Source of the DNA: Prorocentrum cordatum
Lineage: Eukaryota
Assembly (NCBI GenBank): GCA_963575745.1
Contig: CAUYUJ010000002.1
Span: 2,353,937 to 2,373,936 of the forward strand
DNA length: 20,000 nt
Reading direction: 5' to 3'
Both the position numbers and the translations under genes were made by a program. Shown here piece after piece: positions 1,119 through 20,000 of the stretch. Numbering within the stretch: the stretch's first letter is position 1; each line of letters starts with the position of its first letter. The notes under the pieces were generated by a model. The model was not told the origin of the DNA, did not search any database, and saw only the letters and a list, made by a program, of their open reading frames with translations.

Positions 1119-1152
1119 TGCACTCGATTTTGGAATTCTAAAATCGAGTGCA
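1119..1152. repeat. Near-perfect 34-bp palindrome (TGCACTCGATTTT-G-GAATTC-T-AAAATCGAGTGCA)
   Basis: 13-bp perfect inverted arms, one G/T mismatch and a central GAATTC; read directly. Confidence 0.85.
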
Positions 1153-1430: not shown

Positions 1431-2118
1431 ATGTCGGCAGAGCCACCGCCCCCTGGGCACCCGCCTCCCGAGCGCGGGCCTCCAGCCTGCCCGCGTCCGA
1501 TGAGCTCGACCTCGGATGGGATTCCTGTCAAGAGCCCGCCTCCGAAGGCGAAGCCGCCGCCGCCGAGTGCGCCCAACGGATGCCCGCAGCATCCGCCTGA
1601 GCCTCATAGCCAGGAGGCAGAGAACCGCGTTCACATGGTAGCCCTCCACAACAATGTGAAGACGTTGCACACGACGGTGTGCGGTCTGTGCGAGCATGCG
1701 AACTACTTGCAGAAGAAGGTCGAGACTCTGGAACAGGAGCTTCGCGCTCGAGACCAAGAGCGGGATCAAGAGATCACATCCGCCATCAAGAAGTTCGACG
1801 AGGAAGCGACGGCGAGGGCAAAAAAAAGCGATGCAGGAAGCTAAAGTTCCGGAGATTTCGGCGAAGAAGCAGCCGCAGATGTTCAGCATCGGCCTCACAA
1901 CGGCAGACACATCAACAGTCAAGAAGGGCGAGCCGACGCCAGAGAGCGACCTCAGCGAGAGTTGGGCGGTACCAAACGGAATCACGAATGAGCACGTCGG
2001 GGGCAGCTGCAGCTCTCGCGGGGGGCAAGTCGGCGTCAAGGACAAGTCGAATACAACGCGCGTCGGGGATTGCACCGTCGGCTCCAAGGAGAAGTCGAAG
2101 AAGAAAGGCGGCAAGTGA
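1431..2118 (+). pseudogene. Probable small coiled-coil, Lys-rich hypothetical protein, frameshifted at an A8 run (1820-1827)
   Basis: ORF 1431-1844 has a Pro-rich N-terminus and a heptad-like stretch (YLQKKVETLEQELRARDQERDQEITSAIKKFDEE). Removing one A from the A8 run joins it to the AMQEAKVPEIS...KSKKKGGK* frame ending at 2118. Third codon positions are GC-rich. No family recognised. Confidence 0.4.
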
Positions 2119-2579
2119 GGGCGTGGCTGCTGGCCTTCGCTGCATCGTGCGTTACAGAGCACCACGGCTGATGCAGCGCATAAGCGAATCCGCCTGCCTG
2201 CAGGCGCAGAAAAATCCAGCCCTCTACTCCTCATCCTCGAGCGAACCGCTCTACGTGTCGATGGCACTCTTCCGGTTTCTCGTAACGCGGTGTTCAGCTT
2301 TGCAGTGCCGCATGTTACCCTCGCATGTTAAGTGCTACATGCACAGTCGTGCCACGCGCACTGGCGTCGTATACTTCATCCAGTGCTACGTGCACATATT
2401 ACGTTACGTAAGCAAGCAAGAGGAGCGACATTGTGGACCATGTGGTCAATGATACATGCCTGTATCTCCGCATCTTTTTTCTGCTCAAGCGCGCGGGCTG
2501 GGGTTGCCCCGCGCGCTGAGGCCATCCCGCGCGCGCCCTCCCCGCGCGCTGAGCCCCCGCCCCTCGGCGGGGATTCGCC

Positions 2580-2750
2580 ATGGCGTCCATCGCGGGAATT
2601 GTTCAGGAGATCCAGGACGTATCGCGTCTGATAGAAGTTCGAGGCCGCGGCGAAAAGGCACTCAACGTCTGCGCGAACATGTGCAACAGCATCTGCTTGA
2701 AGATCGCTGGCCTGCAGTGGCAGGCAGGATTTGCGCTTCACCTCACCGAG
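2580..2750 (+). CDS. Exon 1 of a predicted 3-exon hypothetical protein (MASIAGIVQEIQDVSRLIE...FALHLTE)
   Basis: ATG at 2580, 57 codons, then a GAG|GTGA donor; phase-0 join to 2884. Confidence 0.5.
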
Positions 2751-2883
2751 GTGACAAGGTGTCAAAACATGTTGAGGCTCTCTGCATGAGGCTTTGCACG
2801 GAGCCTCGTGCAGTGTCGATTGGAAGGGAAAAAGGGGGGATGCAACAGCCGATACGATCGCATATAAGATCACAATACCATAG

Positions 2884-3255
2884 GTGATCCAGAACAGCGT
2901 TCTGACGGACGCCATGAAGGATGCCCTTCAGGACGCCTGTGACCAACGGTCTACATCCCTCGCGGCGGCGGCTGCGGCGGGGGCCCTCATGCAAGTGCGC
3001 GGCGCTGGTGCGCCCACGCGCGATCAGCTCCTGCGGTGCCCCAACAACTACCTCACGAACAAGGGCTGCATTGCGCTCGAGATTCCTCGAGCCACCTGCG
3101 AGGAGCGCGACGAGATCGTCGTGATCAGGCTCGGCTCGGTTGGCCTTCGCCACGCGAACGAGGACGGGCTGATCAAGTGGGTCATGTGCCTCCTCATTGA
3201 CATCGAGCAGCGGCTCCACGGACACTGGCAGTCGTCCAGCGACATCTACAAGAGG
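2884..3255 (+). CDS. Exon 2 of the predicted hypothetical protein (VIQNSVLTDAMK...SSSDIYKR)
   Basis: Preceded by a TAG acceptor (2881-2883) and followed by a GTAACC donor at 3256. Strong GC3 codon bias stops at 3255, and low-complexity sequence follows. Confidence 0.55.
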
Positions 3256-3885
3256 GTAACCTGTGGGGAAATTCGACGTCCCCCCCCCCCCTCCCTCGGA
3301 CGCCCAGGCCGCAAGAGCTACCAAGAGGCTACCAAGAGGCTACCAAGAAACACAGGATGACAGCCAAGAAGCCACAACCAAGAGCCCCGAGAGAGGATAT
3401 AGATAGACCCAACCATGTCTTACAATGCCCCAGAACTGCCATCAAGATGCATCGCATGACGTGGTTTATGGGGTACCTGGTGGGTACTGTTTGAAGCAAC
3501 GGAGGGACGATACACGATATCCCAGAAGACATCCCATAGCTTTGGGACCCATTGATATATATATATATGTGTGTGTGTGTGAATCTGCCACAGTACGCGT
3601 GCGATGTGTGCCGACATGCGCGTGGCGGGCGCATGAGGTGGTCTTCGGTGGAGTTCAGATGAAACGTGTTCGTTGCGAACGATATGAGCGAAGGATTTGG
3701 GACGACATACCTTGCACCCCCAACGGAACACGTGGCGATGACGACCATGACGACGGAAGGGGTGACGAGGTGGATGAGGAAACGGCTACCGAACGCCACG
3801 ACCCAACAGTCCTGGATGGTTTGCACAGCTTTCTGCTAAATTCGCATTGGGTCGACCTTTATGATCTCTTACCTCGCCCAACGAG

Positions 3886-4926
3886 GTGAAGCGCGTGAAG
3901 TCGTTGTTCACCAACCAGCAGCCCTGGGTGGGCACGTGCACCGATAGGTTCCCCGACGACCCCGTCGGCACGCACTTGATGAGTTTCTACTCGGCGGCAG
4001 ATCCTCCGATCGCGCGGGCCAACCACTCGTGCGCGTACATCAGCCAGCACGTGCCGTTGCGTAGCACCAGCAAGCTGCTCAAGACAGATGACCGCATGCA
4101 TAATGCAGATCGGTCCGACCCAATGCAGCAAGCGCTTGCCACCTGCGTGCAGGCGGTCAGAGCGGCCTCCGCTGCAGCTGCAGCTCCTGGCAATGACCTG
4201 GACCTCACGTACGTGGGCAAGTACGCGCACTTGTCGCCCTCGGGGTCATCGCAGTGGTCGCGCCGTGGAGACTGGGACTCCCAGCAGTCATGGGATTCGT
4301 GGGCGAGCGAGCCCTGGTCGGAGAGCAGCAAGGCTCACTTCAAGCCAAGGCTGGCGATCGACAACGGGCCAGCCTCATCGGCAGCAGCAGCCCCCGCTGC
4401 AGCAGCACCGCCACCAGCAGCAGCAGCAGCAGTCGCACCTGCAGCAGCAGAAGACGAAGATACATCAGCAGATGAGGAAGCTGGCTGGGAGGAGGCCGAG
4501 GGCACTGGCGATCAGACCTCAGAGCAGTACGAGGAAGAGGCATTCACTCGCCTCAAGATGAGGAAGTCAGCAGCTGCTGCCACCAAGACAGGTGCTGCAC
4601 CAGCCGCGAAGAAAAGGCCCGCTGCAGCGGCCCTGCAGGGCGAGGCGAAGACGATCAAATACACGATCAAGTGGGAGAAGGCCGGCAAGAAGAGCACCAA
4701 GAACGCCTTCGCGTCGAGGCACTACGGCAGGGCCACGAAAAAGGCGAAGGAGCAGTTCCCTGGCATCAGCGAGCTCGACCTGAAGGCGACCATTCAGAAG
4801 GTTTACAGGGACGCGGCGGCGCTCTGGTCCAAGCACATGGGCCTTTCGGGCCCGCGCTCGCGCGGGCTCAGAGTTTTTGCGGTGGCCGCAGAGGGCATCT
4901 CGACCTCGTGGCCACCGAAAATTTAG
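3886..4926 (+). CDS. Exon 3 of the predicted hypothetical protein: Ala/Pro and acidic linker, basic helical C-terminal domain; stop codon lies in the first telomeric repeat
   Basis: 346-codon open frame with GC3 bias. An AG acceptor at 3884-3885 gives the in-frame join IYKR|VKRVKSLF. Ends AAA ATT TAG at 4918-4926. Confidence 0.6.
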   Translation: MKRVKSLFTNQQPWVGTCTDRFPDDPVGTHLMSFYSAADPPIARANHSCAYISQHVPLRSTSKLLKTDDRMHNADRSDPMQQALATCVQAVRAASAAAAAPGNDLDLTYVGKYAHLSPSGSSQWSRRGDWDSQQSWDSWASEPWSESSKAHFKPRLAIDNGPASSAAAAPAAAAPPPAAAAAVAPAAAEDEDTSADEEAGWEEAEGTGDQTSEQYEEEAFTRLKMRKSAAAATKTGAAPAAKKRPAAAALQGEAKTIKYTIKWEKAGKKSTKNAFASRHYGRATKKAKEQFPGISELDLKATIQKVYRDAAALWSKHMGLSGPRSRGLRVFAVAAEGISTSWPPKI

Positions 4927-4977
4927 GGTTTAGGGTTTAGGGTTTAGGGTTTAGGGTTTAGGGTTTAGGGTTTAGGG
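4922..4977 (+). repeat. Telomeric repeat tract (TTTAGGG)8
   Basis: Eight perfect units counted. Confidence 0.98.
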
Positions 4978-5730
4978 CCTGCATGGGCGCATGCGCGCGC
5001 TGGCTGCGATCCCCCCCACATCAAGGTTGTTGGGGGGGATCGCTGCCCAAGCCGCGCGCGCTATGAACTTGCACTCCCGCCCCAGACCACCCACAGTAAA
5101 GCCCTTTAGGGTTTAGGGTTTCTCCCCCCAACCCCCCTATCAAGGGGGGCTTTCGTGTTGTGTGCGAATGCGCATATTCCGCGGGGAGCACGACGACGCG
5201 GTCTTGGCATTGCGTTCTTGGTACGCGCGCAAAGCGCTTTGCGCAGGCGCAAGAGCCAGCGTCGTCGCATGGCCAACAATCTTTGCCGTGGGTTTAGCTG
5301 CATTCGGCTGGCTCCCAGTTGGCGCATGGCTTTGCCGAAGGACGGATTCTCCTCCTGCGGGTGTTCATTGCAATCAGAAGGCACAGGAGAGGCCTCAAGG
5401 CCAGGCGTCGCCGCATCAGGTTTTGAGTTGCGGCGTTGGCCTGTCGCAGACGCAGCATTGCCCCTGATTCCAGTGAGCCTCCTGCATTGGCTTTTGCCGT
5501 TGGCCTGGTTGCCCTTGCAGCCGCCGTCGTAGACGGCTGCCGCTGGCGCAGCACATCCACAGGGGTCCGCATTTGCCTTCGGCGTTGGAAAGCAGCACTG
5601 CGAGGGCGCTGGCGCGGCAATCCCATGGGCTCCCGATGGCCTCGAGCGAGTAGCCGCGCCGTCGGGCTCCTCGCTGACAGCGACGCGCACGGCAGTTGCA
5701 TTCGCCCGCGGCTTTGGGTTTTGCTTTGAG

Positions 5731-6795
5731 GTCGCCCCCGCTGAAGCGATTGCAATCATCGACGCAGACGCTGTCGACGCGAGCTTCGGAAGGCGGGAGG
5801 AGGAGCGCGAGGGGGTGGGTCTGGCACCCCCTCGCTACGATGCGCGCGCATGGCTGCGGCAGCACGTCCATGGCAGACCCCCTGGAATGCCTTGGGGGAG
5901 CTCTCTGGGAGCGCTGGGGGAGCGCCTCGACCTTTCCCCAGGATGGAAGCACGTGGGAGCGTCTGGGAGCGCGACAGGACACGCAGAGTGCACCGCGAGC
6001 GCGAGCCGTGAATTGCCCGTTGGGCTTGACCGTTGGCGTCGCCCCCGCTGAAGCGATTGCATTGTCGACGCAGCCGCCTTCGGCGCGAATTTCGCATGGC
6101 TGGAAGGGGGAGCGCGAGGGGGTGGGTCTGGCACCCCCTCGCTACGATGCGCGTGCATGGCTGCTGCAGCACCTCCATGGCAGACTTCTTGGAATACCTT
6201 GGGAGAGCTCTCTGGGAGCGCTGAGAGAGCGCCTCGAGGTTTCCCCAGGATGGAAGCACGTGGGAGCGTCTGGGAGCGTGACAGGACACGCAGAGTGCAC
6301 CGCGAGTGCGGGCCGTGGATTGTCCATTGGGCAGGACCGTTGGCGTCGCCCCCGCTGAAGCGATTGCATTGTCGACGCAGCCGCCTTCGGCGCGAATGTC
6401 GCATGGCTGGAAGGGGGAGCGCGAGGGGGTGGGTCTGGCACCCCCTCGCTACGATGCGCGTGCATGGCTGCTGCAGCACCTCCATGGCAGACTTCTTGGA
6501 ATACCTTGGGAGAGCTCTCTGGGAGCGCTGAGAGAGCGCCTCGAGGTTTCCCCAGGATGGAAGCACGTGGGAGCGTCTGGGAGCGTGACAGGACACGCAG
6601 AGTGCACCGCGAGTGCGGGCCGTGGATTGTCCATTGGGCAGGACCGTTGGCGTCGCCCCCGCTGAAGCGATTGCATTGTCGACGCAGCCGCCTTCGGCGC
6701 GAATGTCGCATGGCTGGAGAGGGAGCGCGAGGGGGTGGGTCTGGCACCCCCTCGCCACGATGCGCGCGCATGGCTGCGGCGGCACCTGCATGGCG
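5731..6795 (+). repeat. 307-bp tandem repeat, 3 full units plus a partial unit
   Basis: The anchor GTCGCCCCCGCTGAAGCGATTGC recurs at 5731, 6038, 6345 and 6652. Confidence 0.93.
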
Positions 6796-6849
6796 GGGGA
6801 GCGCCGGGAAGCGCCGCCAGGGAGCGCTGCCGAGTGCTCGCGAATGCAT

Positions 6850-7925
6850 GGAAACGCTTGGGAGCGCCATGGGACCGCTTGGACTGCTTAAACGCGCTTG
6901 GGTGCGCCGGGGAGCGCTTGGGAGCACCTGTGGGAGCTTGGGAGCGCCTGGAAGCGCATGGGAACGCTTGGGAGCGCTTGGGAGCGTGCTGGGAGCGTGC
7001 TGGGAGCGTGCCGGGAGCGCGCCGGAGCGCTTGGGAGTGCTTCGGAGCGCCCCGGAGCGCTCGGAGGCGCCAGGGAGCGCGTGGGAGCGCGCAGGGAGCG
7101 CCTGAGCAGGCTGGGAGCGCCTGGGAGCGTGCAGGGAGCGCTGGGAGTACCTGGGAGCGCTTGGGAGCGCCAGGGAGCGCCTGGGAGCGCCTGGGGGCGT
7201 GCCGGGAGCGCCTGAGAGCGCCTGGGAGCACCCTCTTCGCTACGTTGCGCGCGCATGGCTGCGGCAGCACGGGAAGCGCCGGGAAGCGCCGCCAGGGAGC
7301 GCTGCCGAGTGCTTGCGAATGCATGAAAACGCTTGGGAGCGCCATGGGACCGCTTGGACTTCTTAAACGCGCTTGGGAACGCCGGGGAGCGCTTGGGACC
7401 ACCTGTGGGAGCTTGGGAGCGCTTGGGAGCGCATGGGAGCGCTTGGGAGCGTGCTGGGAGCGTGCTGGGAGCGTGCCGGGAGCGCCTGGGAGCGCGCCGG
7501 AGCGCCTGGGAGTGCTTCGGAGCGCCCCGGAGCGCTCGGAGGCGCCAGGGAGCGCGTGGGAGCGCGCAGGGAGCGCCTGAGCAGGCTGGGAGCGCCTGGG
7601 AGCGTGCAGGGAGCGCTGGGGAGTACCTGGGAGCGCTTGGGAGCGCCAGGGAGCGCCTGGGAGCGCCTGGGAGCGTGCCGGGAGCGCCTGAGAGCGTCTG
7701 GGAGCGCCATGCGCCTGGGAGCGCTTGGGAGCGTGCCGAAAGCGCCGGGGAGCGCTTGGGAGCGCCTGGGAACGCCTGGGAGCGCTGGGGAGCGCTTGGG
7801 AACGCTTGGGGGCGCCTGGGAGCGCCTGGGAGCGCTTCGGGCGCTTGGGAGCGCCTGGGAACGCTTGGGAACGCTTGGGAGCGCCTGGGAGCGCCTGGGA
7901 GCGCTTGGGAGCACTTGGAGCGTGC
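6850..7925 (+). repeat. Degenerate 10-bp minisatellite GGGAGCGC(C/T)T with a ~475-bp higher-order duplication
   Basis: Dozens of TGGGAGCGCY units; the block GAATGCATG.AAACGCTTGGGAGCGCCATGGGACC occurs at ~6842 and ~7317. Confidence 0.92.
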
Positions 7926-8239
7926 GCCAGCCGAAAGGACGCCGCATGCTGTATTTTGATATGGTTTTCGGCCCCACGGACAGCCGAAAGGGCGCCGCAT
8001 GCTGTATTTTCATAGGTTTCGAGCCCCAGGGGATGGGACCAATCGTAGCGAAGCCTTTGGCTGCGCCTAGGGTTAAGGGTTCTATTCATCTCTCAGAACT
8101 CACGAGGCATCCCCGCGGGGGAGCGCATCCTCCTCAGCGCTACGCGCTTCGTCGGTGCGGCGTGCGCGCATGGGCGGACTCGCTGATCGCTCGGCCAGGC
8201 GCCACGGGCTTCTGACGATGCACCGCCCGTGGCTTGCAG

Positions 8240-8316
8240 TTTAGGGTTTAGGGTTTAGGGTTTAGGGTTTAGGGTTTAGGGTTTAGGGTTTAGGGTTTAG
8301 GGTTTAGGGTTTAGGG
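8240..8316 (+). repeat. Telomeric repeat tract (TTTAGGG)11
   Basis: Eleven perfect units counted. Confidence 0.98.
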
Positions 8317-9806
8317 CCTGCATTGGCGCAAGCGCGCGCTGGCTGCGATCCCCCCCACATCAAGGTTGTTGGGGGGGATCGCTGCCCAAGCCGCGCGCGC
8401 CACGGTTAGTCGCACTCCCGCCCCAGACCACCCAGAGTGAAGCCTTTTAGGGTTTAGGGTTTCTCCCCCCAACCCCCCTATCACGGGGGGCTGTCGAAGT
8501 GGCGCGCGCAGGCGATCGCCGACGCGGCCGTGGCACTGCGCATCCACTTGAGCATGCGCGCAGGGCGCGTGACGTAGGCGCGTCGGCTCGTCTCCTCGTC
8601 GAAGAGGCAGCCTTTAGCGATTTCGGCGTTGAGCTTCGCCGTTGGGCTGCCGCTGGCGCAGCATGTCCATGCGTTGCTGCATGTGCCTTCTGCACTGGGT
8701 TGCGACACTGGGCTGTGAATGTTGGGATGCGCGCGTGCGGCCGCGGCCGTAGCAATGCGCGCCGATGCGAGCACGCGCGCAGGGTGCATGGCGCTGGCGC
8801 GTCAGGTCGCCTCGTCGATGAGGCAGCCGGTTGTACCTTCGGCGTGGAGCTTCGCCGGTGGGCTGCCGCTGGCGCAGCAGTTCCACAGGGGTCCGGCATT
8901 TGCCTTCGGCATTGGGCAGCAGCACTGCGAAGGCGCTGGCGCGGGAATCCCATGGTTCCCCGTGGGCCTGGAGCGAGTGGTTGCGCCGTCGGGCTCCTCG
9001 CTGACGGCGACGCGTACGGCAGTTGCATTCGCCCGCGGCTTTGGGTTTCGCCTTTGGGGTCGCTCCCCCGCTGAAGCGATTGCAATCATCGACGCAGCCG
9101 CCTTCGGCGCGAGCTTCGGACGGCTGGAGGGGGAGCGCGAGGGGGTGGGTCTGGCACCCCCTCGCTACGATGCGCGCGCATGGCTGCGGCAGCACCGCCA
9201 TGGCAGAGCCCGTAGAATTCCTCGGGGGGGCTCTCTGGCAGCGCTGGGAGAGCTGGAGCTTCCCCCTGGGGCCGCCTGGAACCGCCTGGGCAAGCTTGGG
9301 AGCGCGCGGGAGCGCGCGGGAGCGCATGGGAGCGCCGCGTGGCGCCTTGGAGCGCTTGTGGGTGCTTCAGAGCGCGTGGGACTGCTTGTGCGCCTGGGAG
9401 CACCTGGGAGCGCCAGGGAGCGCTTAGGAGCGCTTCGGAGTCGTGGCAGCGCTGGGAACGCTGGAGAGCGCTTGCGAGCGCCTGGGACCGCGCCAGGAGC
9501 GTGCCGGGAGCGCTTGGGAGCGCCTGCGAGCGCCTGGGAAGCGCTTGGGGGCGTGCCGGGAGCGCCTGGGAGCGCTTGGGAGCGCCTGGGAGCGCAGCCA
9601 GCGCGCGCCTGGGAACCCGCCTGGGTGCGTGCCGGGAGCGCCCAGGAGCGCTTGGGAGCGCCTGGGAGCGCTTGGGAGCGCGTGGGAGCGTGCCGAGAGC
9701 GCCTGGGAGCGTGCCGGGAGCGCCTGAGGCGCCGTGGAGCGCTTGGGAGCGTGCCGGGAGCGCCTGGGAAAGCTTGGAAAGCTTGGGAGCGCCTGGGAGC
9801 GCTTGG

Positions 9807-9848
<42 letters not shown>

Positions 9849-10204
9849 ACGCCTGGGAGCGCCTGGGAGCGTGCCGAGAGCGCCTGGAGCGTCTGGAAGC
9901 GCTTGGAGCGCCGCATGCGGTAATTTCATAGGTTTGGAGCACCCAGAGAGCACCGCATGCTGTATTTTCATAGGTTTGGAGCCCCAGGGAAAGCATCGTC
10001 GCAACGGGCACCCACTGGCTAGGGCTGAGGGTTAGGGGTTCCTTTTCTTAGGAGAACACCCCGGGGATGCACCGCGCGGCGTGCGAATTCCTCCTCAGCG
10101 GCTATCGCCGCTTCGTCGGTGCGGCGAACGCCGTATGGGCAGGCTCGCTGAGCGCTCGGCCAGACGCCACGGGCTTCTGACGATGCACCGCCCGTGGCTT
10201 GCAG
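8317..10204 (-). mobile_element. Non-coding module B, diverged relative of module A with the same termini
   Basis: Left cap near-identical to A (hairpin 8345-8382); (TTTAGGG)2 at 8446-8459; right end GCCACGGGCTTCTGACGATGCACCGCCCGTGGCTTGCAG identical to A; partly homologous interior. Confidence 0.7.
9290..9910 (+). repeat. 10-bp minisatellite GGGAGCGC(C/T)T
   Basis: Read directly. Confidence 0.9.
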
Positions 10205-10248
10205 GGTTTAGGGTTTAGGGTTTAGGGTTTAGGGTTTAGGGTTTAGGG
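10203..10248 (+). repeat. Telomeric repeat tract AGGG(TTTAGGG)6
   Basis: Six perfect units at 10207-10248, preceded by a partial unit. Confidence 0.98.
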
Positions 10249-10485
10249 CCTCGCTGGGCGGAAGCAGCTCGACCCCCCCTCCTTCAAGAGGTTGGGGGGG
10301 TCGGCTGCTATTCGTTCCCGTTCCCACCCCCCACCCAAAAGTACCCCTTTAGGGTTTAGGGTTCTTCTACCCCCCTCTCTCCCCCCTTCTCATGGGGGGA
10401 AGGTCTTCGTGGCGGATCATCTTCGGGCGTCAACCAGCTGTCAATCTACCCCCCTTCGCCCCCCTTCGCATGGGGGGGCTAACTG

Positions 10486-10553
<68 letters not shown>
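10486..10553 (+). repeat. (CT)n microsatellite with two interruptions
   Basis: Read directly. Confidence 0.97.
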
Positions 10554-10699
10554 GGAGCGCATCTTGGCTGGAGCTCACACATGGCACCCTCGAAGATTTG
10601 GCGGGTGGGGGAGCGCGAGGGGGCGGGTCTGGCGCCCCCTCGCATTCCATTGTGCGCTACGGACTTCTCTGGTGCCCTTCGCCGGGCTGAGTGGGCAGC

Positions 10700-10908
10700 A
10701 GCGCCTGGAAGCGCCTGGGAGCTCCTTGGAGCGCTTGGGAGCGCCTGGGAGCGCCTGGGAGCGCTTGGGAGCGTTTGGAAACGCTTGGGAGCGCCTGGGA
10801 GCGCCTGGGAGCGCTTGGGAGCGCTTGGGAGCGCCTGGGAGCGCTTGGGAACGCTTGGGAACGCTTGGAGCGCTTGGGAGCGCTTGGCAGCGCTTGGCAG
10901 CGCTTGGC

Positions 10909-10943
<35 letters not shown>

Positions 10944-11842
10944 TTCTTGGGAGCGCTTGGGGGCGCTTGGGAGCGCCTGGGAGCGCTTGGGCGCGCTTGG
11001 GAGCGGGGAGCGCCTGGCACCGCCTGGGAGCGCTTGGGGGCGCTTGGGAGCGCTTGGCAGCGCTTGGGAGCGCTTGAAAGCGCTTGGCAACGCCTGGGAA
11101 CGCTTGGGAGCGCTTGGGAGCGTCTGGGACCGCGTGGGAGCGCTTGGGAGCGCTTGGGAGCGCTTGGAAGCGCTTGGGAGCGCTTGGGAACGCTTGGAGC
11201 TTGGGAGCGCCGGGGAACGCCCCCGGGCGCCAGGGAGCGCCCCGGAGCGCTTGGGAGCGCCTGGGAGCGCTTGGGGCGCCGGCGCGGAGGGGGAGCGCGA
11301 GGGGGCGAGCTTGGCGCCCCTTCGCAAGCGTGGGAGCGCTTGGGAGCGCTTGGGAGCGCCTGGGGGCGCTTGGACGCGGTTGGGAGCGCTTGAGAACGCT
11401 AGGGTGCGCTTGGGATCGCGTGGGAGCGCCTGGGGGCGCGTGGGAGCGCCTGGGAGCGCCTGGGAGCGCTTGGGAGCGCTTGACAATGCCTGGGGGCGCC
11501 TGGGAGCGCTTGCGAGCGCTTTGCAGCGCCGAGGAGCGCCTGGGAACGCTTGGGAGCGCTTGGGGCGCCTGGCAGCGCCTGACAGCGCTTGGGAACGCCC
11601 AGGAGCGCTTGGGAGCGCTTGGAACCGCCTGGGAGCCATTGGGGATCCTGGGAGCGCTCGGGAGCGCTTGGGAACGCTTGGGAGCGCTGGGCAACGCTTG
11701 GGAGCGCATGGGAACGCTTGGGATCGCTTGGCAGCGCTTGGGAGCACCCGGGAGCGCCTGGGAGCGCTTGGCAGCGTTCGGGAGCGCTTGGGAGCGCTTG
11801 GGAGCGCCTGGGAGCGCCTGGGAGCGCCTGCGGGCGCGTGGG

Positions 11843-11876
<34 letters not shown>

Positions 11877-12679
11877 TTGGGGAGCGCCTGGGAGCGCCTA
11901 GGAGCGCTTGGGAGCGCCTGGGGGCGCTTGGGAGCGCTTGTTTCGCTTTCGAAGTTCGGCGCGGAAGACGAGCGCGAGGGGGCGGGCTTGGCGCCCCCTC
12001 GCAACTGCCAAGTGCTCCCAGGCGCTCGCAAGCTTGGGAGCGCTTCGGAGCGCTTGGCAGCGCTTGCGAGCGCTTGGGAGCGCCCGGACGCGCTCCCGGG
12101 CGCCGGGGGGCGCCTGGGAGCGCCTGGGAGCGCTTGGGAGCGCCTGGGAGCGCTTGGGAGCGCTTAGGAGCGCTTGGGAGCGCTTGGGAGCGCTTGGCAG
12201 CGCTTGGGGGCGCTTCGGAGCGCTTGGGAGCTCCCGGGGAGCGCTTGTGAGCGCCTGGGGCCGCCTGGGCCGCCTGGGACTGCATGGGAGCGCCGGGGAG
12301 CGCGCCCGGGCGCCGGGGAGAGCTCCGGGGCGCTTGGGAGCGCTTGGGAGCGCCTGGGAGCGCTTGGGAGCGCTTGGGAACGCTTGGGAGCGCCGGGGGG
12401 CGCCCCGGGCGCCGGGGAGCGCCCCGGAGCGCTCGGGAGCGCCTGGGAGCGCCTGGGAGCGCTTGGGAGCGCCTGGGAGCGCGTGGGAACGCTTGGGAGC
12501 GCCTGGGAGCGCCGGGGAGCGCCTGGGAGCGCTTGGCAGCGCCTGGGAGCGCCTGGGAGCGCTTGGGAGCGCCTGGGAGCGCCTGGGAGCGCTTGGGAGC
12601 GCTTGGGAGCGCTTGGGAGCGCCTGGGAGCGCCTGGGAGCGCGTGGGAGCGCTTGGGAGCGCCTGGGAGCGCTCCCAGG
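10700..12679 (+). repeat. ~2-kb 10-bp minisatellite GGGAGCGC(C/T)T
   Basis: Read directly; ends in the perfect palindrome CCTGGGAGCGCTCCCAGG (12662-12679). Confidence 0.95.
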
Positions 12680-12870
12680 TGAGGTTTATCCTTCCAGGGG
12701 CCAACACGGGAGCCGCCAGAGCACAGGAGTCCAGGGTTCAGGGTTATCTAAGAGCCGAAGCTCAGCGCGTGCGCCGGCCCGATAACGATCTGGGCGCTCG
12801 ACTATCGCTCGCTTTCAGAGCGGACAAGGTTCGACATCGGTGCGCGACCCGTCGAGGGGTCGCGCATCAG

Positions 12871-12912
12871 TTTAGGGTTTAGGGTTTAGGGTTTAGGGTT
12901 TAGGGTTTAGGG
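12871..12912 (+). repeat. Telomeric repeat tract (TTTAGGG)6
   Basis: Six perfect units counted. Confidence 0.98.
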
Positions 12913-13665
12913 CCTGCATTGGCGCATGCGCGCGCTGGCTGCGATCCCCCCCACATCAAGGTTGTTGGGGGGGATCGCTGCCCAAGCCGCGCGCGCTATG
13001 AACTTGCACTCCCGCCCCAGACCACCCACAGTAAAGCCCTTTAGGGTTTAGGGTTTCTCCCCCCAACCCCCCTATCAAGGGGGGCTTTCGTGTTGTGTGC
13101 GAATGCGAATATTCCGCGGGGAGCACGACGACGCGGTTTTGGCATTGCGTTCTTGGTACGCGCGCAAGGCGCTTTGCGCAGGCGCAAGAGCCAGCGTCGT
13201 CGCATGGCCAACAATCTTTGCCGTGGGTTTAGCTGCATTCGGCTGGCTCCCAGTTGGCGCATGGCTTTGCCGAAGAACGGATTCTTCCCCTGCTGGTGTT
13301 CATTGCAATCAGAAGGCACAGGAGAGGCCTCAAGGCCAGGCGTCGCCGCATGAGGTTTTGAATTACGGCGTTGGCCTGTCGCAGACGCAGCGCTGCCCCT
13401 GGTTCCAGTAGGCCTCCTGCATTGGCTTTTGCCGTTGGCCTGGCTGCCCTTGCAGCCGCCGTCGTAGACGGCTGCCGCTGGCGCAGCGCATCCACAGGGG
13501 TCCGCATTTGCCTTCGGCGTTGGAAAGCAGCACTGCGAGGGCGCTGGCGCGGCAATCCCATGGGCCCCCGTGGGCCTCGAGCGAGTAGCCGCGCCGTCGG
13601 GCTCCTCGCTGACGCCGACGCGCACGGCAGTTGCATTCGCCCGCGGCTTTGGGTTTTGCTTTGAG

Positions 13666-14420
13666 GTCGCCCCCGCTGAAGCGATTGCAAGCATCGACGC
13701 AGACGATGTCGACGCGAGCTTCGGAAGGCGGGAGGAGGAGCGCGAGGGGGTGGGTCTGGCACCCCCTCGCTACGATGCGCGTGCATGGTTGCTGCAGCAC
13801 CTCCATGGCAGACCTCTTGAAATGCCTTGGGCGAGCTCTCTGGGAGCGCTGGGGGAGCGCCTCGACCTTTCCCAAGGATGGAAGCACGTGGGAGCGTCTG
13901 GGAGCGCGAGAGGACACGCAGAGTGCACCGCGAGCGCGAGCCGTGAATTGCCCGTTGGGCTTGACCGTTGGCGTCGCCCCCGCTGAAGCGATTGCATTGT
14001 CGACGCAGCCGCCTTCGGCGCGAATGTCGCATGGCTGGAAGGGAAGCGCGAGGGGGTGGGTCTGGCACCCCCTCGCTACGATGCGCGTGCATGGTTGCTG
14101 CAGCACCTCCATGGCAGACCTCTTGGAATGCCTTGGGAGAGCTCTCTGGGAGCGCTGAGAGAGCGCCTCGAGGTTTCCCCAGGATGGAAGCACGTGGGAG
14201 CGTCTGGGAGCGTGACAGGACACGCAGAGTGCACCGCGAGTGCGGGCCGTGGGTTGTCCATTGGGCAGGACCGTTGGCGTCGCCCCCGCTGAAGCGATTG
14301 CATTGTCGACGCAGCCGCCTTCGGCGCGAATGTCGCATGGCTGGAGAGGGAGCGCGAGGGGGTGGGTCTGGCACCCCCTCGCTACGATGCGCGCGCATGG
14401 CTGCGGCAGCACCTGCATGG
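13666..14420 (+). repeat. 306/307-bp tandem repeat, 2 full units plus a partial unit
   Basis: The anchor recurs at 13666, 13973 and 14279. Confidence 0.93.
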
Positions 14421-14479
14421 CGGGGGAGCGCCGGGAAGCGCCTTCAGGGAGCGCTGCCGACTGCTTGCGAATGCATGGA

Positions 14480-15497
14480 AACGCTTGGGAGCGCCATGGG
14501 ACCGCTTGGACTGCTTAAACGCGCTTGGGAGCGCCGGGGAGCGCTTGGGAGCACCTGTGGGAGCTTGGGGGCGCCTGGGAGCGCATGGGAACGCCTGGGA
14601 GCGCTTGGGAGCGTGCTGGGAGCGTGCCGGGAGCGCCTGGGAGCGCGCCGGAGCGCTTGGGAGTGCTTCGGAGCGCTCCGGAGCGCTCGGAGGCGCCAGG
14701 GAGCGCTTGGGAGCGCGCAGGGAGCGCCTGAGCAGGCTGGGAGCGCCTGGGAGCGTGCAGGGAGCGCTTGGGAGTACCTGGGAGCGCTTGGGAGCGCCAG
14801 GGAGCGCCTGGGAGCGCCTGGGACGTGCCGGGAGCGCCTGAGAGCGCCTGGGAGCACCCTCTTCGCTACGTTGCGCGCGCATGGCTGCGGCAGCACCTGC
14901 ATTGCGGGGAAGCGCCGGGAAGCGCCGCCAGGGAGCGCTGCAGAGTGCTTGCGAATGCATGAAAACGCTTGGGAGCGCCATGGGGCCGCTTGGACTTCTT
15001 AAACGCGCTTGGGGAGCGCTTGGGACCACCTGCGGGAGCTTGGGAGCGCATGGGAACGCTTGGGAGCGCTTGGGTGCGTGCTGGAGCGTGCCGGGAGCGC
15101 CTGGGAGCGCGCCGGAGCGCTTGGGAGTGCTTCGGAGCGTCCCGGAGCGCTCGGAAGCGCCAGGGAGCGCGTGGGAGCGCGCAGGGAGCGCCTGAGCAAG
15201 CTGGGAGCGCCTGGGAGCGTGCAGGGAGCGCTTGGGAGTACCTGGGAGCGCTTGGGAGCGCCAGGGAGCGCGTGGGAGCGCCTGGGAGCGTGCCGGGAGC
15301 GCCTGAGAGCGCCTGAGAGCGCCATGCGCCTGGGAGCGCTTGGGAGCGCTTGGGAGCGTGCCGAAAGCGCCGGGGAGCGCTTGGGAGCGCCTGGGAACGC
15401 TTGGGAGCGCCTGGGGAGCGCTTGGGAACGCTTGGGAGCGCCTGGGAGCGCCTGGGAGCGCTTGGGGCGCTTGGGAGCGCCTGGGAGCGCTTGGGAA

Positions 15498-15530
<33 letters not shown>

Positions 15531-15550
15531 TTGGGAGCACCTGGAGCGTG
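14480..15550 (+). repeat. 10-bp minisatellite GGGAGCGC(C/T)T with a ~480-bp higher-order duplication
   Basis: Read directly; mirrors 6850-7925. Confidence 0.92.
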
Positions 15551-15865
15551 CGCCAGCCGAAAGGACGCCGCATGCTGTATTTTCATATGGTTTGCGGCCC
15601 CACGGACGGCCGAAAGGGCGCCGCATGCTGTATTTTCATATGTTTCGAGCCCCAGGGGATGGAACCAATCGCGGGGGAGCCACTGGCTGGGCCTAGGGTT
15701 AAGGGTTCTATTCATCTCTCAGAACTCACGAGGCATCCCCGCGGGGGAGCGCATCCTCCTCAGCGCTACGCGCTTCGTCGGTGCGGCGTGCGCGCATGGG
15801 CGGACTCGCTGATCGCTCGGCCAGGCGCCACGGGCTTCTGACGATGCACCGCCCGTGGCTTGCAG

Positions 15866-15921
15866 TTTAGGGTTTAGGGTTTAGGGTTTAGGGTTTAGGG
15901 TTTAGGGTTTAGGGTTTAGGG
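15866..15921 (+). repeat. Telomeric repeat tract (TTTAGGG)8
   Basis: Eight perfect units counted. Confidence 0.98.
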
Positions 15922-16729
15922 TGTCCTCTGTCAGCGCTTGCTGATCTTCAATCGTGTAAGACCACCCCCACCCATCAAATGGAGTGGGGGTGGGGTAATC
16001 GTGTTGAAGTGATATCATGTTGAGCGGAATCATGTTTCGGCTACGGGGCCAGCTCCCCTTTTCACATTCCCACCCCGCGCCCGTTAGGGCGGCGAGCCAC
16101 CCACGGCTTTCTCTATTAGGGTTTAGGGTTCACTTGTAATCGAGATTCTCTTTCTCTTAGGGGTCCAGGACCCCAATCAGTTTGTCAATCCTTCCTTCTC
16201 ATGTGTACGACATACAGTGCTATGTGTATCACACGGTGGGGTTCGTAGTCGCGCGAGCTCCGTCCTTCGCGAAACGCAGCGACGCGACCCGACGCGTCGG
16301 GTCGAGCTCGCGTCGCTACGCTTCCCCGGGGGCCGCCGCGTGGAGGCGGACGGATATGGCCCCCTGGGTTTCCGCGCAGCTCTGGCCGACCCCTCGCGCG
16401 CGCGGCTGAAAGGTTCCCAGCGACAGCTCGACGGGTCGGCCAAAGCCGCGCGGAAGCCCCCCCCATCGCCGAGCTTCCAGACCAGATGACAAGCATGCAG
16501 AAACTATTCGGTCCTACGACATGTGCAAGTCTATGAGATGCCACTGGGTCCTGCGAGTCTTACGGGTTCCCTCATTCGGCCTCAGAGATCTCTATCGGGT
16601 CTGTGCGTTTCCTCCTCGATTCCCCTGCTTCCTCCTAGACAGATTTTCGGTGGCGCCTGTGCGCGCCGCCACTGCGTTCGGGCCGAGCCCCGCGCGCGCG
16701 CCCGCTAGCGCGCCTGCCGAGCACGCTGC

Positions 16730-18760
16730 TCAGAGGTTGGCCGGGATGAAGTGCTTCTGCTGCAGGTAGCCGACGAACGTCCAGTCCTTGTCATGCTGAA
16801 CGCGGGACAATGCCACGTATCCCGCTGCCTCCACGCCCGGCGTGTCCATCCACAGCGTCATATGCTTCAGGGTATCGCCCTGCACCTTCATGAGGGTGGT
16901 GGCGTACGCAAGTCGCAGCGGGTAGTAAACGTTGCGCCACTCGGGGTTGGTGTAGGGCGGCACCTTGACCATGTGGCCCGTGGTGGTCTTGACCAAGACG
17001 CCCGTGTGGTCCATCATGATCACGCGGCCCTCGATGCCGTTAACGAAGTCGATCTCGGGGCGAATGTTGGCGGTGAAGCCCACGCGCATGCCCTGGTAGA
17101 TCGGGAGGCGCATGTTGTGCCAGCTGACCTGCTTGGTGCCGTAGAAGTTGTCGGGGTTGAACTCAGGGTCGGCGTCGACGGTGCCCAGCGGCTCCTGCTC
17201 CCAGTAGAAGTGCCGCAAGGCTGCCTGGTTGACCCACGCCGCCTTGGCCCTGGAGATCGTGACGAACGTCGTGGTGGGGTGCTCCTCGAAGACCTGGCCG
17301 ATCTCGTACTCCGTGGGCTCCTCGCGCTCCCACCAGCCCACATCCCGATGGCCGGGCGAAGGCGCGCGATGGTCCCTGATGATCTCCACAAGCTGCGGCC
17401 TGCTCGGCGTGGCAGTGCGGAGGAGCTCAAGCCTCTTCTTGAGAATGGGGCACTTGCAGCGGCGCATGATCTTGAGCTCCCTCACGTCGACGTCGGCCCA
17501 GCGCCAGTGCTCGAGGACGCGCGGGCTGTCCATCCAGCGGAGCTGTCGGAAGTCGCCGACGAAGACGAGCGCAGGGCGCCGCGCGGCCGCGTCCCAGAGG
17601 CGCAGGAGGCGCTCAAAGATCCACATCTCGACCATGCTGATCTCCTCGATGACAACGAGGTCGAAGTCCTGCATGCGCTGGAGCGTCTGCTGCTCCGGGA
17701 GGTAGACGTTGAAGGCCCTGTGGATGCTGTCGACGTCGAGGTCGGGCATGTCCTCGCGGTAGCGCGCCACCTGTCGGCGCGTGGGGCAGGCGAGGAGGAC
17801 GCGGGCGCCCTGGGCGATGGCGTCCTGCATGACGACCTTGATGAGGAAGGACTTGCCGCTCCCCGCGGGCCCCAGGACGGCGATGGGGCGCGGGTCCTCG
17901 TCGACGGGCGGGCCGTGGTTGTGCTCCTCGTAGTCGTCGGGCCAGGCGAGCTCCACCGCCCTGTGCCAGCGCCTCGTGATGAGATCGGCGACGGGTATCT
18001 GCTCGGGCTCGAGGGTGGTAATGCGGCCATCGAAGGCGTAGTGGTGTCGCGGCGGCTCGGGGTCTTCCCCGACCACGAGGCGGCCCTCCAGGTAGTCGTC
18101 GACGAGGGTGATGTGCGCCTTGATCATCGCCACGTTGGAATCGATGGTCGGGTCGCGGTGAGCCTCCAGCTGCATGTCGGCGCGCAGCCATGCCTCGCTC
18201 CGCCAAAGGTCAGGGCGGTGGAGAAGGCAGTGGGCGAACAGCCTGTACCCCGTCGGTACGAGCTCCGCGGCATCCTGCCAGAGCTCATCCACGCTGCGGA
18301 AGGGGACGTGGAGGAGCATCCACTGGCCGTAGTACTCGTCGCTGAAGCGAGAGTTGGAGCGCGCCGCCACCAGGACCTCGCCGCGCATGGGCACGCGCGC
18401 GGCCCAGGTCTCCAGGTCGACGTTGGCCACGGAGGGGTCGTTCGCCTTCTGGAGATTGGCGTAGCGCAGGCGGAGCGCTCGGTGTACGCCGCCCCTGCTG
18501 TTGGAGCGCCGCACGTAATCCAGGAGGCTCATGTGGTCGGGTCGCCAGGCGCTGTGCGTGTAGCGCTCGACGACCGCGGGCATCTCCTTGCCCTTCCACG
18601 GCACGGGCACGGGGATATTCTTGACCGTGCCGTGCGTGAGGACCTGGGAGTACTCCGATGCGGCAAGCTGGAGCCACATCTCGGGCTCGAGCGGGTGGAA
18701 CTCCGTGAGGATGCGGCGGCTGATGGCGTAGTCGGAGGCCTCGTCATTGAGCCACTCGGG
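16730..18760 (-). CDS. Helitron RepHel C-terminal part: SF1 PIF1-like DNA helicase
   Basis: Walker A GPAGSGKS (~17849-17872), LACPT, VVIEEISMV (Walker B-like), VFVGDFRQL, IMRRCK, FVNG, YPLRLAYATTLMKVQGDTL and GYVALSRV. The frame extends upstream of the listed Met as PEWLNDEASDYAISRRILTEFHPLEPEM. Confidence 0.93.
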   Translation of the reverse strand, partial: PEWLNDEASDYAISRRILTEFHPLEPEMWLQLAASEYSQVLTHGTVKNIPVPVPWKGKEMPAVVERYTHSAWRPDHMSLLDYVRRSNSRGGVHRALRLRYANLQKANDPSVANVDLETWAARVPMRGEVLVAARSNSRFSDEYYGQWMLLHVPFRSVDELWQDAAELVPTGYRLFAHCLLHRPDLWRSEAWLRADMQLEAHRDPTIDSNVAMIKAHITLVDDYLEGRLVVGEDPEPPRHHYAFDGRITTLEPEQIPVADLITRRWHRAVELAWPDDYEEHNHGPPVDEDPRPIAVLGPAGSGKSFLIKVVMQDAIAQGARVLLACPTRRQVARYREDMPDLDVDSIHRAFNVYLPEQQTLQRMQDFDLVVIEEISMVEMWIFERLLRLWDAAARRPALVFVGDFRQLRWMDSPRVLEHWRWADVDVRELKIMRRCKCPILKKRLELLRTATPSRPQLVEIIRDHRAPSPGHRDVGWWEREEPTEYEIGQVFEEHPTTTFVTISRAKAAWVNQAALRHFYWEQEPLGTVDADPEFNPDNFYGTKQVSWHNMRLPIYQGMRVGFTANIRPEIDFVNGIEGRVIMMDHTGVLVKTTTGHMVKVPPYTNPEWRNVYYPLRLAYATTLMKVQGDTLKHMTLWMDTPGVEAAGYVALSRVQHDKDWTFVGYLQQKHFIPANL

Positions 18761-20000
18761 TGCAGGTCCCTGGCGGTGTGGTGGAGCCTCAGCGTCTTCC
18801 CCCGCTCGTCCCAGATCGAGTCCTCTTTGCGCTCAGGCCACGGATGGGAGCCGTGCGTGGAGGTCTGGGAGCCCATGACGATGTGGTAGAGCTGCTCCTG
18901 CTCCCCGTCGTCTGGGATGGTGGCGGAGACCTTGCTCGGGAGATCGATCGTGGCGACCTTCTCCAGCCAGACGAGGCAGTGGACGTGGGGGCGGCCGCTG
19001 CCGTGGTAGGCGTGCCGCGCGTTGGGCCCGCCGCGCTTGCGCTTGCCGTCTTGGAACTCGATGCGCGCGAACTGCGTGATCACGCGCTGCGTCGGCTTGC
19101 CCTCGGCGTCCTTGCCAGCCAGAACGTGGTGCGTCCACGCTGCGCTCGCCTCGCTCCGCGCCTTCCCCTGGGTGCCAGTCAGCAGCCCAACGATGGCCTG
19201 GGTGAGCACGTGCGAGAGGTGGTAGGTCTCCGCGGCCGGAAGCCACGTGCGCGACCGCAGCGTCCGCCGCATCTCGTCCTCGACCCAGACGTGGAACGGC
19301 GTGGACCACTCCAGCGGCGACAGGGTCACGAACAGGGTCGGGAAGCCCAGCTGGCGCTGCAAATCGATGAGGGCGAAGTGGTAGGTCCGCCAGTACTCGG
19401 GGCTGAAGGACATGCCAGCCAGCGCCAGGCGCATTGGCACCTTGGCAGCGTGCTTCTTGCCCCCCAGTGCCGTCCAGAGCCAGAGGTCGTAGACGAACTG
19501 GGCGAGCTCGGTGTCGGCGCCGTAGCCGATCACGGGCGAGAAGACCTTGGCCGTGTAGCTGCGCTTGAGCGACTGGCGTTTCTTGCCGTCGGCCTCTGCG
19601 TCGTCGCTGTCGGCAGAGTCGTCGCTATTCTCGTCGTCCTGGCCGAAGTGCGCAGCCCGTCGCGCGGCCCGCGTGCGCACCATCCGCCGCTCGTCCAGCA
19701 GGCGGACGTAGGTCTCGCACATGGACACCCTCGGGTACAGGTGGGGCCAGATGGCCGTCTCGATGCCGAGCTGCTCCACGAGGCGCATCGCGAGGCGGCG
19801 CTTCTTCTGTGAGAGGTCGTTGCGGTTCCTGCGGAGGAACCTGTTGTGCAAGCGCATGATGGCGAAGTACGCGCTCTTCTGAGGGTGGGCCAGGTAGTAG
19901 TCCGTGAGCGTGGCCCAGCTGGAGAAGTCCTCCTCGGCGGGGTCGTCGTGCGCCACGAGGTACTCGAGGGCGTCCATGGCCCTGCGCTGGTGGCGCTCGG
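18760..20000 (-). pseudogene. Helitron RepHel N-terminal part: HUH replication initiator domain, frameshifted relative to the helicase, 5' end outside the window
   Basis: GFPTLFVTLSPLEW (motif 1) and RIEFQ...YHGSGRPHVHCLVW (HUH motif 2, HVH at ~18979-18987). The frame is open to the window edge. Coding signal switches frame at ~18760, and no YxxKY/YxxxY motif 3 is visible. Confidence 0.85.

Follow-up and report, generated by a model that had tools for sequence, protein, structure and literature searches.

Helitron-like elements between telomeric repeats in the dinoflagellate Prorocentrum cordatum: probable orientation-specific integration into TTTAGGG tracts

Introduction

By what route do repeat-filled modules and a gene for a Rep–helicase fusion protein (RepHel) come to stand head to tail between perfect telomeric repeats, all in one orientation? 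The question is raised by a stretch of 20,000 nucleotides from the dinoflagellate Prorocentrum cordatum (GenBank assembly GCA_963575745.1, contig CAUYUJ010000002.1, positions 2,353,937–2,373,936 of the forward strand; hereafter the window, with positions counted from its first letter), in which four modules lacking an open reading frame (A, B, C and A', called ORF-less below) and a fifth unit that codes for RepHel (R) are separated by (TTTAGGG)n tracts. TTTAGGG is the telomere repeat of dinoflagellates according to the available text of PMC11453091; a GC content of 59.7% is reported in the P. cordatum genome paper, the main text of which mentions neither Helitrons nor telomeres (PMC10666404). 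The array is read here as the result of an orientation-specific integration of Helitron-like elements into telomeric repeats, by which a dinoflagellate subtelomere was built; to this reading a probability of roughly 70% is assigned.

Results

Layout of the array

The three-unit TTTAGGG pattern gave 29 matches, on the plus strand only (0 expected; 200 shuffles of the window); in total, 48 TTTAGGG units were counted on the plus strand and no CCCTAAA. Five period-7 arrays were returned by TRF, each 100% perfect: 4922–4977 (8.0 copies), 8239–8316 (11.1), 10203–10248 (6.6), 12870–12912 (6.1) and 15865–15922 (8.3). Taken as whole units, the perfect plus-strand tracts are (TTTAGGG)8 at 4922–4977 (tract 1), (TTTAGGG)11 at 8240–8316 (tract 2), (TTTAGGG)6 at 10207–10248 (tract 3), (TTTAGGG)6 at 12871–12912 (tract 4) and (TTTAGGG)8 at 15866–15921 (tract 5); the five perfect co-oriented tracts of 8, 11, 6, 6 and 8 units described in an initial annotation, made from the letters alone, were borne out by both counts. 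Tract 1 directly abuts non-repetitive gene sequence (…CCACCGAAAA/TTTAGGG; here and below the stroke marks a junction). Positions 1–4921 are ordinary sequence (GC ca. 58–62%), and from 4922 to the end of the window the GC content is 62–75%. All four modules and R have a single orientation, and the order A, B, C, A from three subfamilies, likewise given in the initial annotation, was confirmed by alignment of the modules. Since the G-rich strand reads 5' to 3' towards the right, the chromosome end is expected on that side of the array. A scan of the whole window against Rfam gave nothing at the gathering score.

Architecture of the ends and phase of the junctions

On the G-strand the left ends have a common order: tract ending in …GGG, terminal sequence of ca. 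12–40 nt, GC-rich hairpin, C-rich box, spacer of ca. 10 nt, TTTAGGGTTTAGGGTT and often a second hairpin. In an alignment of 11 left ends (five from the window, six from other loci) the CCACCC box was invariant and was accompanied by a subterminal TTTAGGGTTTAGGG. The nhmmer profile of this alignment gave 15 hits, in 15 of which TTTAGGG was found in the same orientation within 300 nt upstream; four of the hits (L031, L045 and two weak copies of a repeat in L061, E 0.0076) lay outside the training set. The left-end hairpin was more stable than those of all 200 shuffles in eight of 12 box-type ends (z −3.9 to −6.2); the other four were weaker, 2–13 shuffles folding as well. The right ends of A, B, C, L027, L031 and the second element of L059 have a stem 3–8 nt inside the terminus (some of the z-scores are not significant), and telomere-like dimers lie 130–220 nt further in from right termini. 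The conservation of this end architecture extends across lineages that have only ca. 30% identity in RepHel.

The outermost bases vary (left CCTGCA… or TGTG…; right …TTGCAG, …CATCAG, …GGGAA or …CTGAC), and the junctions fall almost throughout at one phase of the repeat. A full …GGG preceded the left end in 15 of 15 tract-to-element junctions, one or two T being ambiguous where the element itself starts with T, and a full TTTAGGG start followed the right end in 11 of 12 element-to-tract junctions, module B being the exception. Telomeric flanks on both sides, of the same polarity and with a fixed orientation of the termini, were recorded for 5/5 units of the window and for one whole element in L059.

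Telomeric flanks at related loci

Sixty related loci (55 from metagenomes and five from genomes labelled bacterial) were collected by scans with an alignment of 22 proteins; they are designated L below. Element ends abut TTTAGGG in 16 of the 60, a lower bound, since many of the contigs are short. Perfect tracts of at least two units occurred in 11/55 metagenome loci and 2/5 bacterial-labelled loci, and a tolerant scan found tracts of at least three units in 13/60. In L045, L031 and L044 a lone TTTAGGG (7 bp) separates the right end of one element from the left end of the next. The layout element–tract–element was seen in independent short- and long-read contigs (L012, L025, L027, L031, L045, L017, L038, L026, L006, L044 and L059). 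The same flanks and the same end architecture in independent assemblies favour telomere-repeat specificity and disfavour local duplication; the initial proposal of Helitron-like elements set in telomeric repeats together with non-autonomous derivatives is upheld by these relatives.

The most complete case is a long contig of 330 kb (L059), in which 35 of 35 pattern matches were forward and none reverse, all at 304.2–314.3 kb around a RepHel element. There, unique DNA gives way to (TTTAGGG)7, after which come a RepHel element of 6.58 kb that has both its ends, (TTTAGGG)5, an ORF-less element of 3.2 kb and then (TTTAGGG)29; six ORFs around this array gave no Pfam match. Past (TTTAGGG)29 (L059 18595–24347; L061 1–10435) a unit of 6967 bp follows in tandem, in at least 2.3 copies, as far as the contig end; each unit is bordered by degenerate telomere-like repeats of the same polarity and has, on the opposite strand, a 563-aa ORF, which was without a match in Pfam and without a relative in the protein collection searched.

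Two further observations were made at related loci. In L020 (13861–13988) the repeats are joined straight inside a truncated helicase ORF and in another phase (…GACGCGGC/TTAGGG…; GC/TTAGGG), as if a terminal element had been eroded or broken and its end then repaired by telomerase. Satellites of telomere-like units adjoin RepHel genes in L053 (5250–5430), L038 (900–1000), L023 (14600–15250) and L013 (3800–4450); one type consists of units of ca. 14–16 bp, TTTAGGGTTAAAGGA, and another of repeats of ca. 85–130 bp, each with TTTAGGGCGGCAC.

The RepHel unit

Unit R is represented in the window by its left end only. Its left terminal domain (15922–16175, plus strand) starts with TGTCC… and contains a hairpin (CCACCCCCACCC with GGGTGGGGGTGG; z −5.9), the CCACCC box and ATTAGGGTTTAGGGTT at 16115–16130; the architecture is that of A, B and C, with no similarity to them detectable by blastn. 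An A/B/C-type terminus adjoins another RepHel lineage, in L005. The coding part lies on the minus strand in two frames: the C-terminal part (16730–18763; stop codon 16730–16732) comprises the post-Rep region and a Pif1-family superfamily 1B (SF1B) helicase, and the N-terminal part (18760–19998), which runs off the window end, contains motif I (LFVTLSPLEW) and the HUH motif (HVH, in GRPHVHCLVWL). The translations are 95–96% identical to entries of P. cordatum named 'unnamed protein product'; the C-terminal part is 96% identical to residues 1433–2106 of one family member (P0003; members are designated P), and the N-terminal part matches its residues 980–1388. Residues ca. 1389–1432 of P0003 (ca. 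44 residues), including the two-tyrosine motif RYVSSYTAKF, are absent from the window protein, which is frameshifted at ca. 18760–18763.

As judged from its reading frames, this copy is defective and cannot act; any mobilisation would have to come in trans from intact copies. Such copies may exist, since at least five named P. cordatum proteins share the same 90% cluster. Of the annotated RepHel unit with the end architecture of its neighbours, the HUH Rep, the PIF1 helicase and the architecture stand, and the terminus sequence is unlike those of A, B and C. The further claim that this RepHel mobilises the modules fails for the window copy, which has lost the tyrosine motif and the frame; only a supply in trans is left of it.

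The helicase was recognised directly: in the window ORFs by Pfam AAA_30 (3e-17), AAA_19 (3e-16) and PIF1 (7e-4), and with the family profile against the PDB by PIF1 (1e-20) and the helicase part of Helraiser (7LCC; 5.5e-16). For Rep the path was longer. The motifs LFITxAPYEW, GRVHxHxLVWL and LLRYVxxYVxKF, together with Walker A and B, were found in the family alignments. Weak matches to Pfam Helitron_like_N (PF14214) were obtained for 19 of 30 family members, most members remaining below the Pfam cut-off of 28.9 bits; P0282 (41.0 bits) and P0273 (29.9 bits) pass it and P0258 reached 27.8 bits, and these three match the Rep region of P0003 with E values of 1e-36, 7e-72 and 1e-99, respectively. 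The nearest clusters by language-model features were also Helitron_like_N (score 0.95). By such transitive homology, and not by direct match, the protein is classed as a Helitron-type RepHel with a very divergent Rep.

The strand of the gene relative to the repeat is variable. The C-strand carries the ORF in the window, L005, L022, L045 and L058, the G-strand in nine other loci, and the two orientations are interspersed on a tree of 38 loci; in L045 and L059 collinear ORFs are 72–80% identical and the left end is inverted. It is therefore the termini, not the gene, that hold a fixed polarity to the telomere, the orientation of the ORF flipping between close relatives. The strand of the ORF was considered as a guide to the transposed strand and was rejected on the same pair of loci, which are close and yet have the left end inverted.

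The ORF-less modules

Module A (4978–8239, plus strand; 3262 bp, non-autonomous) begins with a left terminal domain (4978–5165) consisting of a hairpin, the box CCCGCCCCAGACCACCC, an internal (TTTAGGG)2 at 5105–5118 and a second hairpin; its interior is made up of 3.5 repeats of 307 bp (5731–6794) and a 10-bp GCGCYTGGGA minisatellite (6894–7922), and its right end of a subterminal CCTAGGGTTAAGGGTT at 8066–8081 and the hairpin CCACGGGC…GCCCGTGG, followed by CTTGCAG. Module B (8317–10206, plus strand; ca. 1.89 kb, non-autonomous) is similar to A in the first 178 nt of the left end (92% identity; blastn) and has a right end identical in type; at its right junction two extra G (10205–10206) are present, giving CTTGCAG/GG/TTTAGGG, whereas A and A' with the same end give CTTGCAG/TTTAGGG. 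The extra GG brings the terminal AG of the element into the register of the repeat. Module C (10249–12870, plus strand; 2622 bp, non-autonomous) has left and right end sequences of its own in the common architecture: hairpin, box CCCACCCCCCACCC and (TTTAGGG)2 at 10348–10361 on the left; subterminal CCAGGGTTCAGGGTT at 12731–12745 and an 11-bp stem 3 nt from the end (…CATCAG) on the right. Its interior holds (TC)34 at 10486–10553 and ca. 198 copies of the 10-bp minisatellite, which, with the end architecture, is all that C has in common with A and B. Module A' (12913–15865, plus strand; 2953 bp) is another copy of A; the identity is 96.9% in the first 1.5 kb and 94% thereafter, and there is one 307-bp unit fewer. 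It is followed by R, not by B and C.

The GCGCYTGGGA minisatellite fills all of A, B, C and A' (up to ca. 198 copies). A further common feature is an internal hairpin, GCGAGGGGG-N11-CCCCCTCGC, of which ten plus-strand copies lie within 5807–14382 (0 expected by shuffling): four in A (5807, 6114, 6421, 6727), one in B (9137), two in C (10615, 11974) and three in A' (13742, 14048, 14354). In the C copies a compensatory change of T·A to C·G lengthens the stem. The 9-bp stem of this hairpin, with another loop, was also found in L015 (145–173), 2.7 kb upstream of a distant RepHel ORF. No Pfam match was obtained for the eight ORFs tested from modules A, B, C and A' and the non-coding arm of R (two of them in module A). 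The derivation of A, B and C by deletion from the adjoining RepHel copy was tried and ruled out, since no blastn similarity was found.

Modules A and A' differ by ca. 3% in unique sequence (3–6% overall), and the 287 bp of tracts contain no substitution. This difference favours the separate insertion of already diverged copies over an old duplication in place; homogenisation of the tracts could be another cause of the contrast.

Breadth of the family

With a profile of the Rep region, 3085 representative clusters were found at E ≤0.001 and 916 at E ≤1e-30 in a library of 1.84 billion representative proteins; the best 150 listed are all family members. All relatives for which the source gives an organism name are dinoflagellate (Prorocentrum, several Symbiodinium, Breviolum, Fugacium, Effrenium, Polarella, Durusdinium). 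The names of the members in the sources are 'Pif1', 'ATP-dependent DNA helicase' or 'unnamed protein product'. The scan of viral contigs with the 22-protein alignment gave no relative, and the published Symbiodinium RepHel CAE7237458.1 was absent among the cluster members listed.

Five RepHel contigs (L056–L060) are filed under bacterial metagenome-assembled genomes (an actinobacterium, an alphaproteobacterium and a Cyclobacteriaceae bin), and include the 330-kb contig in which the telomere repeats were seen; all five are probably dinoflagellate DNA assigned to the wrong bin. Additional N-terminal domains were noted in the relatives P0088, P0076, P0271 and P0263, namely Josephin (4e-10), ASCH (5e-5) and ubiquitin (precomputed PF00240). 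ASCH is also the name given to P0271 by its source, and the extra N-terminal domains recall the protease domains of Helentrons.

The host-type gene at the proximal edge

Left of tract 1 a host-type gene occupies 2679–4923 (plus strand; coding blocks 2679–2753, 2863–3258 and 3886–4923). It is a paralogue of the P. cordatum proteins P0217 and P0218 (82–97% identity per block), the block 3886–4923 matching residues 149–448 of P0217; its family in P. cordatum is small, and P0218 is called AP2/ERF domain-containing by one source. On these protein matches and those of RepHel, an origin of the window in a green alga or plant, to which TTTAGGG and the high GC content had pointed, was rejected. The frame enters the first telomere unit and gains its stop there (…WPPKI*), the paralogue terminating in …WPPKMSE, so that the gene is cut 2–3 codons ahead of the stop of the paralogue. 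The proximal junction would accordingly represent a break close to the 3' end of the gene, healed by telomerase. The sequence before tract 1 (4905–4921, …GTGGCCACCGAAAA/TTTAGGG) is similar to right ends seen at three metagenome loci, where they belong to an element of another type: L045, ca. 9991–10030, minus strand (…GCCACCTAAAA/); L012, ca. 6720–6744 (…GCCACCAAAAA/); and L038, ca. 1020–1034 (…GGCTCCTAAAA/). The likeness may be due to chance, or the 'host gene' may lie inside yet another telomere-associated unit.

Discussion

Proposed mechanism and the points against it

The events may be pictured as follows. A chromosome end would have been healed with TTTAGGG at the 3' end of the host gene and afterwards lengthened by serial insertions, Helitron-like rolling-circle elements integrating one after another, all in the same orientation, into the telomeric tract. 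Four of the insertions would be satellite-filled ORF-less derivatives (A, B, C, A') and the fifth a RepHel copy that has since become defective. Intact RepHel, with its Cys-rich N-terminal region, HUH/two-tyrosine Rep and Pif1-type helicase, would act in trans: it would recognise the hairpin-bearing ends, nick and unwind one strand, and insert this strand where single-stranded telomeric DNA is cut, at the GGG^TTT boundary or next to it. The asymmetry of the two strands of the telomere repeat, combined with the action of HUH nucleases on one strand, would explain the uniform polarity of insertions and flanking tracts. Strand-specific and site-specific integration by an HUH Rep is most likely to account together for the one polarity of the insertions, the constant phase of the junctions, the conservation of the ends and the spacers of 7 bp. 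The part of Rep as the cutter of the target, the strand used and the order of the insertions are what we infer. The right ends, with a stem a few nucleotides from the terminus, resemble the 3' end of Helitrons, which would suggest the G-strand as the transposed strand; the C-strand is favoured by the authors of the Paramecium study in its available text (PMC13085455).

Several findings weigh against integration into telomeric tracts by a Helitron-type Rep. The tracts between elements are short (1–29 units) and dinoflagellate telomeres are reported to be long; a preference for the tract edge or subsequent shrinkage is needed to explain this. Neither the window nor the related loci showed an excision site, an empty site or a circular junction. 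The junction of module B is off register by two G. The window Rep matches Helitron_like_N only with E 0.058 (14 bits, below the cut-off), and a Rep-only profile gave chance-level matches in the PDB and no solved Rep structure. Near-universal TTTAGGG flanks, named in the initial annotation as the mark of targeting, were not found: set beside the 16 of 60 loci are ca. 10 others whose flanks exceed 1.5 kb and hold no telomere unit beside a recognisable end. Finally, the evidence from flanks is confined to the window and to related loci of other assemblies.

Other explanations

The best of the other explanations, judged unlikely, leaves to RepHel only the excision or replication of a circle carrying a few telomere units; the circle, or a whole chromosome end, would enter by homologous recombination or break-induced replication via TTTAGGG. 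One crossover between the tract of a circle and a telomere yields direct tracts of the same polarity, variable length and in-register junctions; telomere-like repeats are present inside both element ends, and subtelomeres are prone to recombination. Set against this is the conservation of the hairpin and the CCACCC box across the ca. 30%-identical RepHel lineages, which points to recognition of the ends by a protein and not to homology alone; besides, the spacers of a single 7-bp unit in L045, L031 and L044 are too short for homologous recombination.

Very unlikely is the attachment of elements to a free chromosome end in the manner of HeT-A, followed by healing by telomerase, the tracts then being healing products and not split targets. 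The repeats inside the truncated helicase ORF of L020, in another phase, are as erosion and healing would give; the proximal junction of the window, read as a healed break at a gene end, also fits, and the module B junction (CAG/GG TTTAGGG) resembles primer-aligned addition by telomerase. It is opposed by the full TTTAGGG that follows 11 of 12 right ends regardless of their last bases (…CAG, …GAA, …GAC, …GAG) and by the complete …GGG that always precedes the left ends; moreover, we know of no mechanism by which an HUH element is attached to a free end. Recombination of tract-bearing circles, or end attachment with healing, may account for some events.

Least probable of all is an assembly artefact (separate chromosome ends joined via shared repeats) or a segmental duplication (A…A' as a tandem), for which the highly repetitive nature of the region (10-bp and 307-bp arrays, telomere tracts) and an assembly known here from the contig alone may be cited, but which conflicts with the same layout in independent contigs of other organisms, with R and not B and C following A', and with the 3–6% divergence of A and A' beside perfect tracts.

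Comparison with known systems

A close precedent for Helitron-like elements inserted in telomeric repeats is already in print. In the initial annotation no telomere-specific Helitron was known; that statement does not hold, since in Paramecium aurelia Helitrons insert in C4A2 repeats and cap the germline chromosomes (Arnaiz et al., BMC Biol 2026, PMC13085455), and telomere-associated helitron-like elements are described in Oscheius tipulae (PMC8022731), both as given in the text available of these papers. According to the same text of PMC13085455, the Paramecium elements are alike in that telomeric repeats of a single polarity stand on either side of RepHel; in that the orientation of the termini is absolute with respect to the chromosome end and that of the ORF varies by lineage; and in the many internal satellites, the ORF-less derivatives stacked at the ends and the internal telomere blocks. 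They differ in host (a ciliate), repeat (C4A2/C3A3) and ORF (9–10 kb), as compared with a dinoflagellate, TTTAGGG and an ORF of ca. 2100 aa here; and the CCACCC box and the subterminal telomere dimers, features of the ends here, are not described for Paramecium in the available part of PMC13085455. The likeness is one of arrangement and implies no sister relation of the two RepHel lineages. What is new here is the dinoflagellate case, the conserved end architecture and the very large unannotated family.

In O. tipulae, as far as the available text of PMC8022731 (2020) goes, divergent helitron-like genes with a Pif1 helicase likewise occur, only in subtelomeric extensions between internal and external telomere repeats, and are likewise poorly found by standard Helitron tools; in contrast to the present case the elements belong to a nematode, whose repeat is TTAGGC, their protein has 3985 aa, and precise ends or repeat-specific insertion are not described there. 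Other reports are of Helitron fragments, degenerate and randomly oriented, in the telomeres of Drosophila biarmipes (PMC6581046) and of subtelomeric repeats of Helitron origin in Hydractinia (PMC11934779). No report of telomere-associated Helitrons in dinoflagellates was found in the literature search, the scope of which did not include subscription papers.

Within the Helitron-like elements, Helitron2/Helentron (HLE2) and HLE1 share the fusion of an HUH/two-tyrosine Rep with a Pif1-like helicase, the absence of a duplicated target and the occurrence of hairpins close to the termini; in having such hairpins at either end, the present elements agree with Helitron2/Helentron as summarised in the available text of PMC13085455. 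The 5'-TC…CTRR-3' termini and A/T insertion of canonical Helitrons (HLE1) were not found, the ends being different and the flanks being …GGG and TTTAGGG…; insertion at AT or TT, or at the TT or TC of Helitron2/Helentron, is replaced by insertion at the telomere repeat. Consistent asymmetric terminal inverted repeats were absent: by eye, A and B have a 5-nt match of CTGCA with TGCAG, and C and L059 have none. No AP endonuclease, a Helentron trait, was found in Pfam scans of the window ORFs and the full-length relatives. A RepHel of Symbiodinium microadriaticum was placed basal to Helitron2 and Helentron in the available text of PMC8788227.

The telomere-specific retroelements (Bombyx SART1/TRAS1, the Penelope-like Athena, Drosophila HeT-A/TART) are comparable in their repeat- or end-specific insertion, head-to-tail arrays of one polarity and interstitial tracts; they use reverse transcription, in contrast to the HUH nuclease–helicase here, and no reverse transcriptase family was found in the Pfam scans of the window ORFs and the full-length relatives. 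HUH transposons of the IS200/IS605 and IS91 types share single-strand HUH chemistry, subterminal hairpins and strand- and sequence-specific insertion without duplication, but are prokaryotic and have no fused Pif1 helicase; the guide-sequence mechanism of IS608 may at most serve as a lead for the present elements.

Significance for dinoflagellate chromosome ends

To our knowledge, DNA transposons aimed at telomeric repeats were unknown before the report from Paramecium. A second case, found independently in dinoflagellates, suggests that this niche is wider than one ciliate genus, and provides a concrete model for the build-up of the poorly understood dinoflagellate subtelomeres. It further supplies defined cis elements (hairpins, CCACCC box, subterminal telomere dimers, internal hairpin) and a candidate enzyme for the sequence-specific cleavage of single strands of telomeric DNA. 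Caution is called for with dinoflagellate assemblies, in which interstitial TTTAGGG tracts and expansions of 'Pif1' genes may be transposon footprints.

A bolder and rather unlikely extension is that an old HUH–Pif1 lineage of very large size, specialised on telomeric single-stranded DNA, builds the chromosome ends of dinoflagellates and has a part in maintaining them, with the CCACCC box and the telomere dimers as guide or decoy. If this were true, the lineage would be a DNA-transposon counterpart of HeT-A/TART working alongside telomerase; the box and the dimers might pair with the telomeric strand or recruit its proteins, directing the HUH cut; and the same strategy in ciliates would mean either common alveolate ancestry or a striking convergence.

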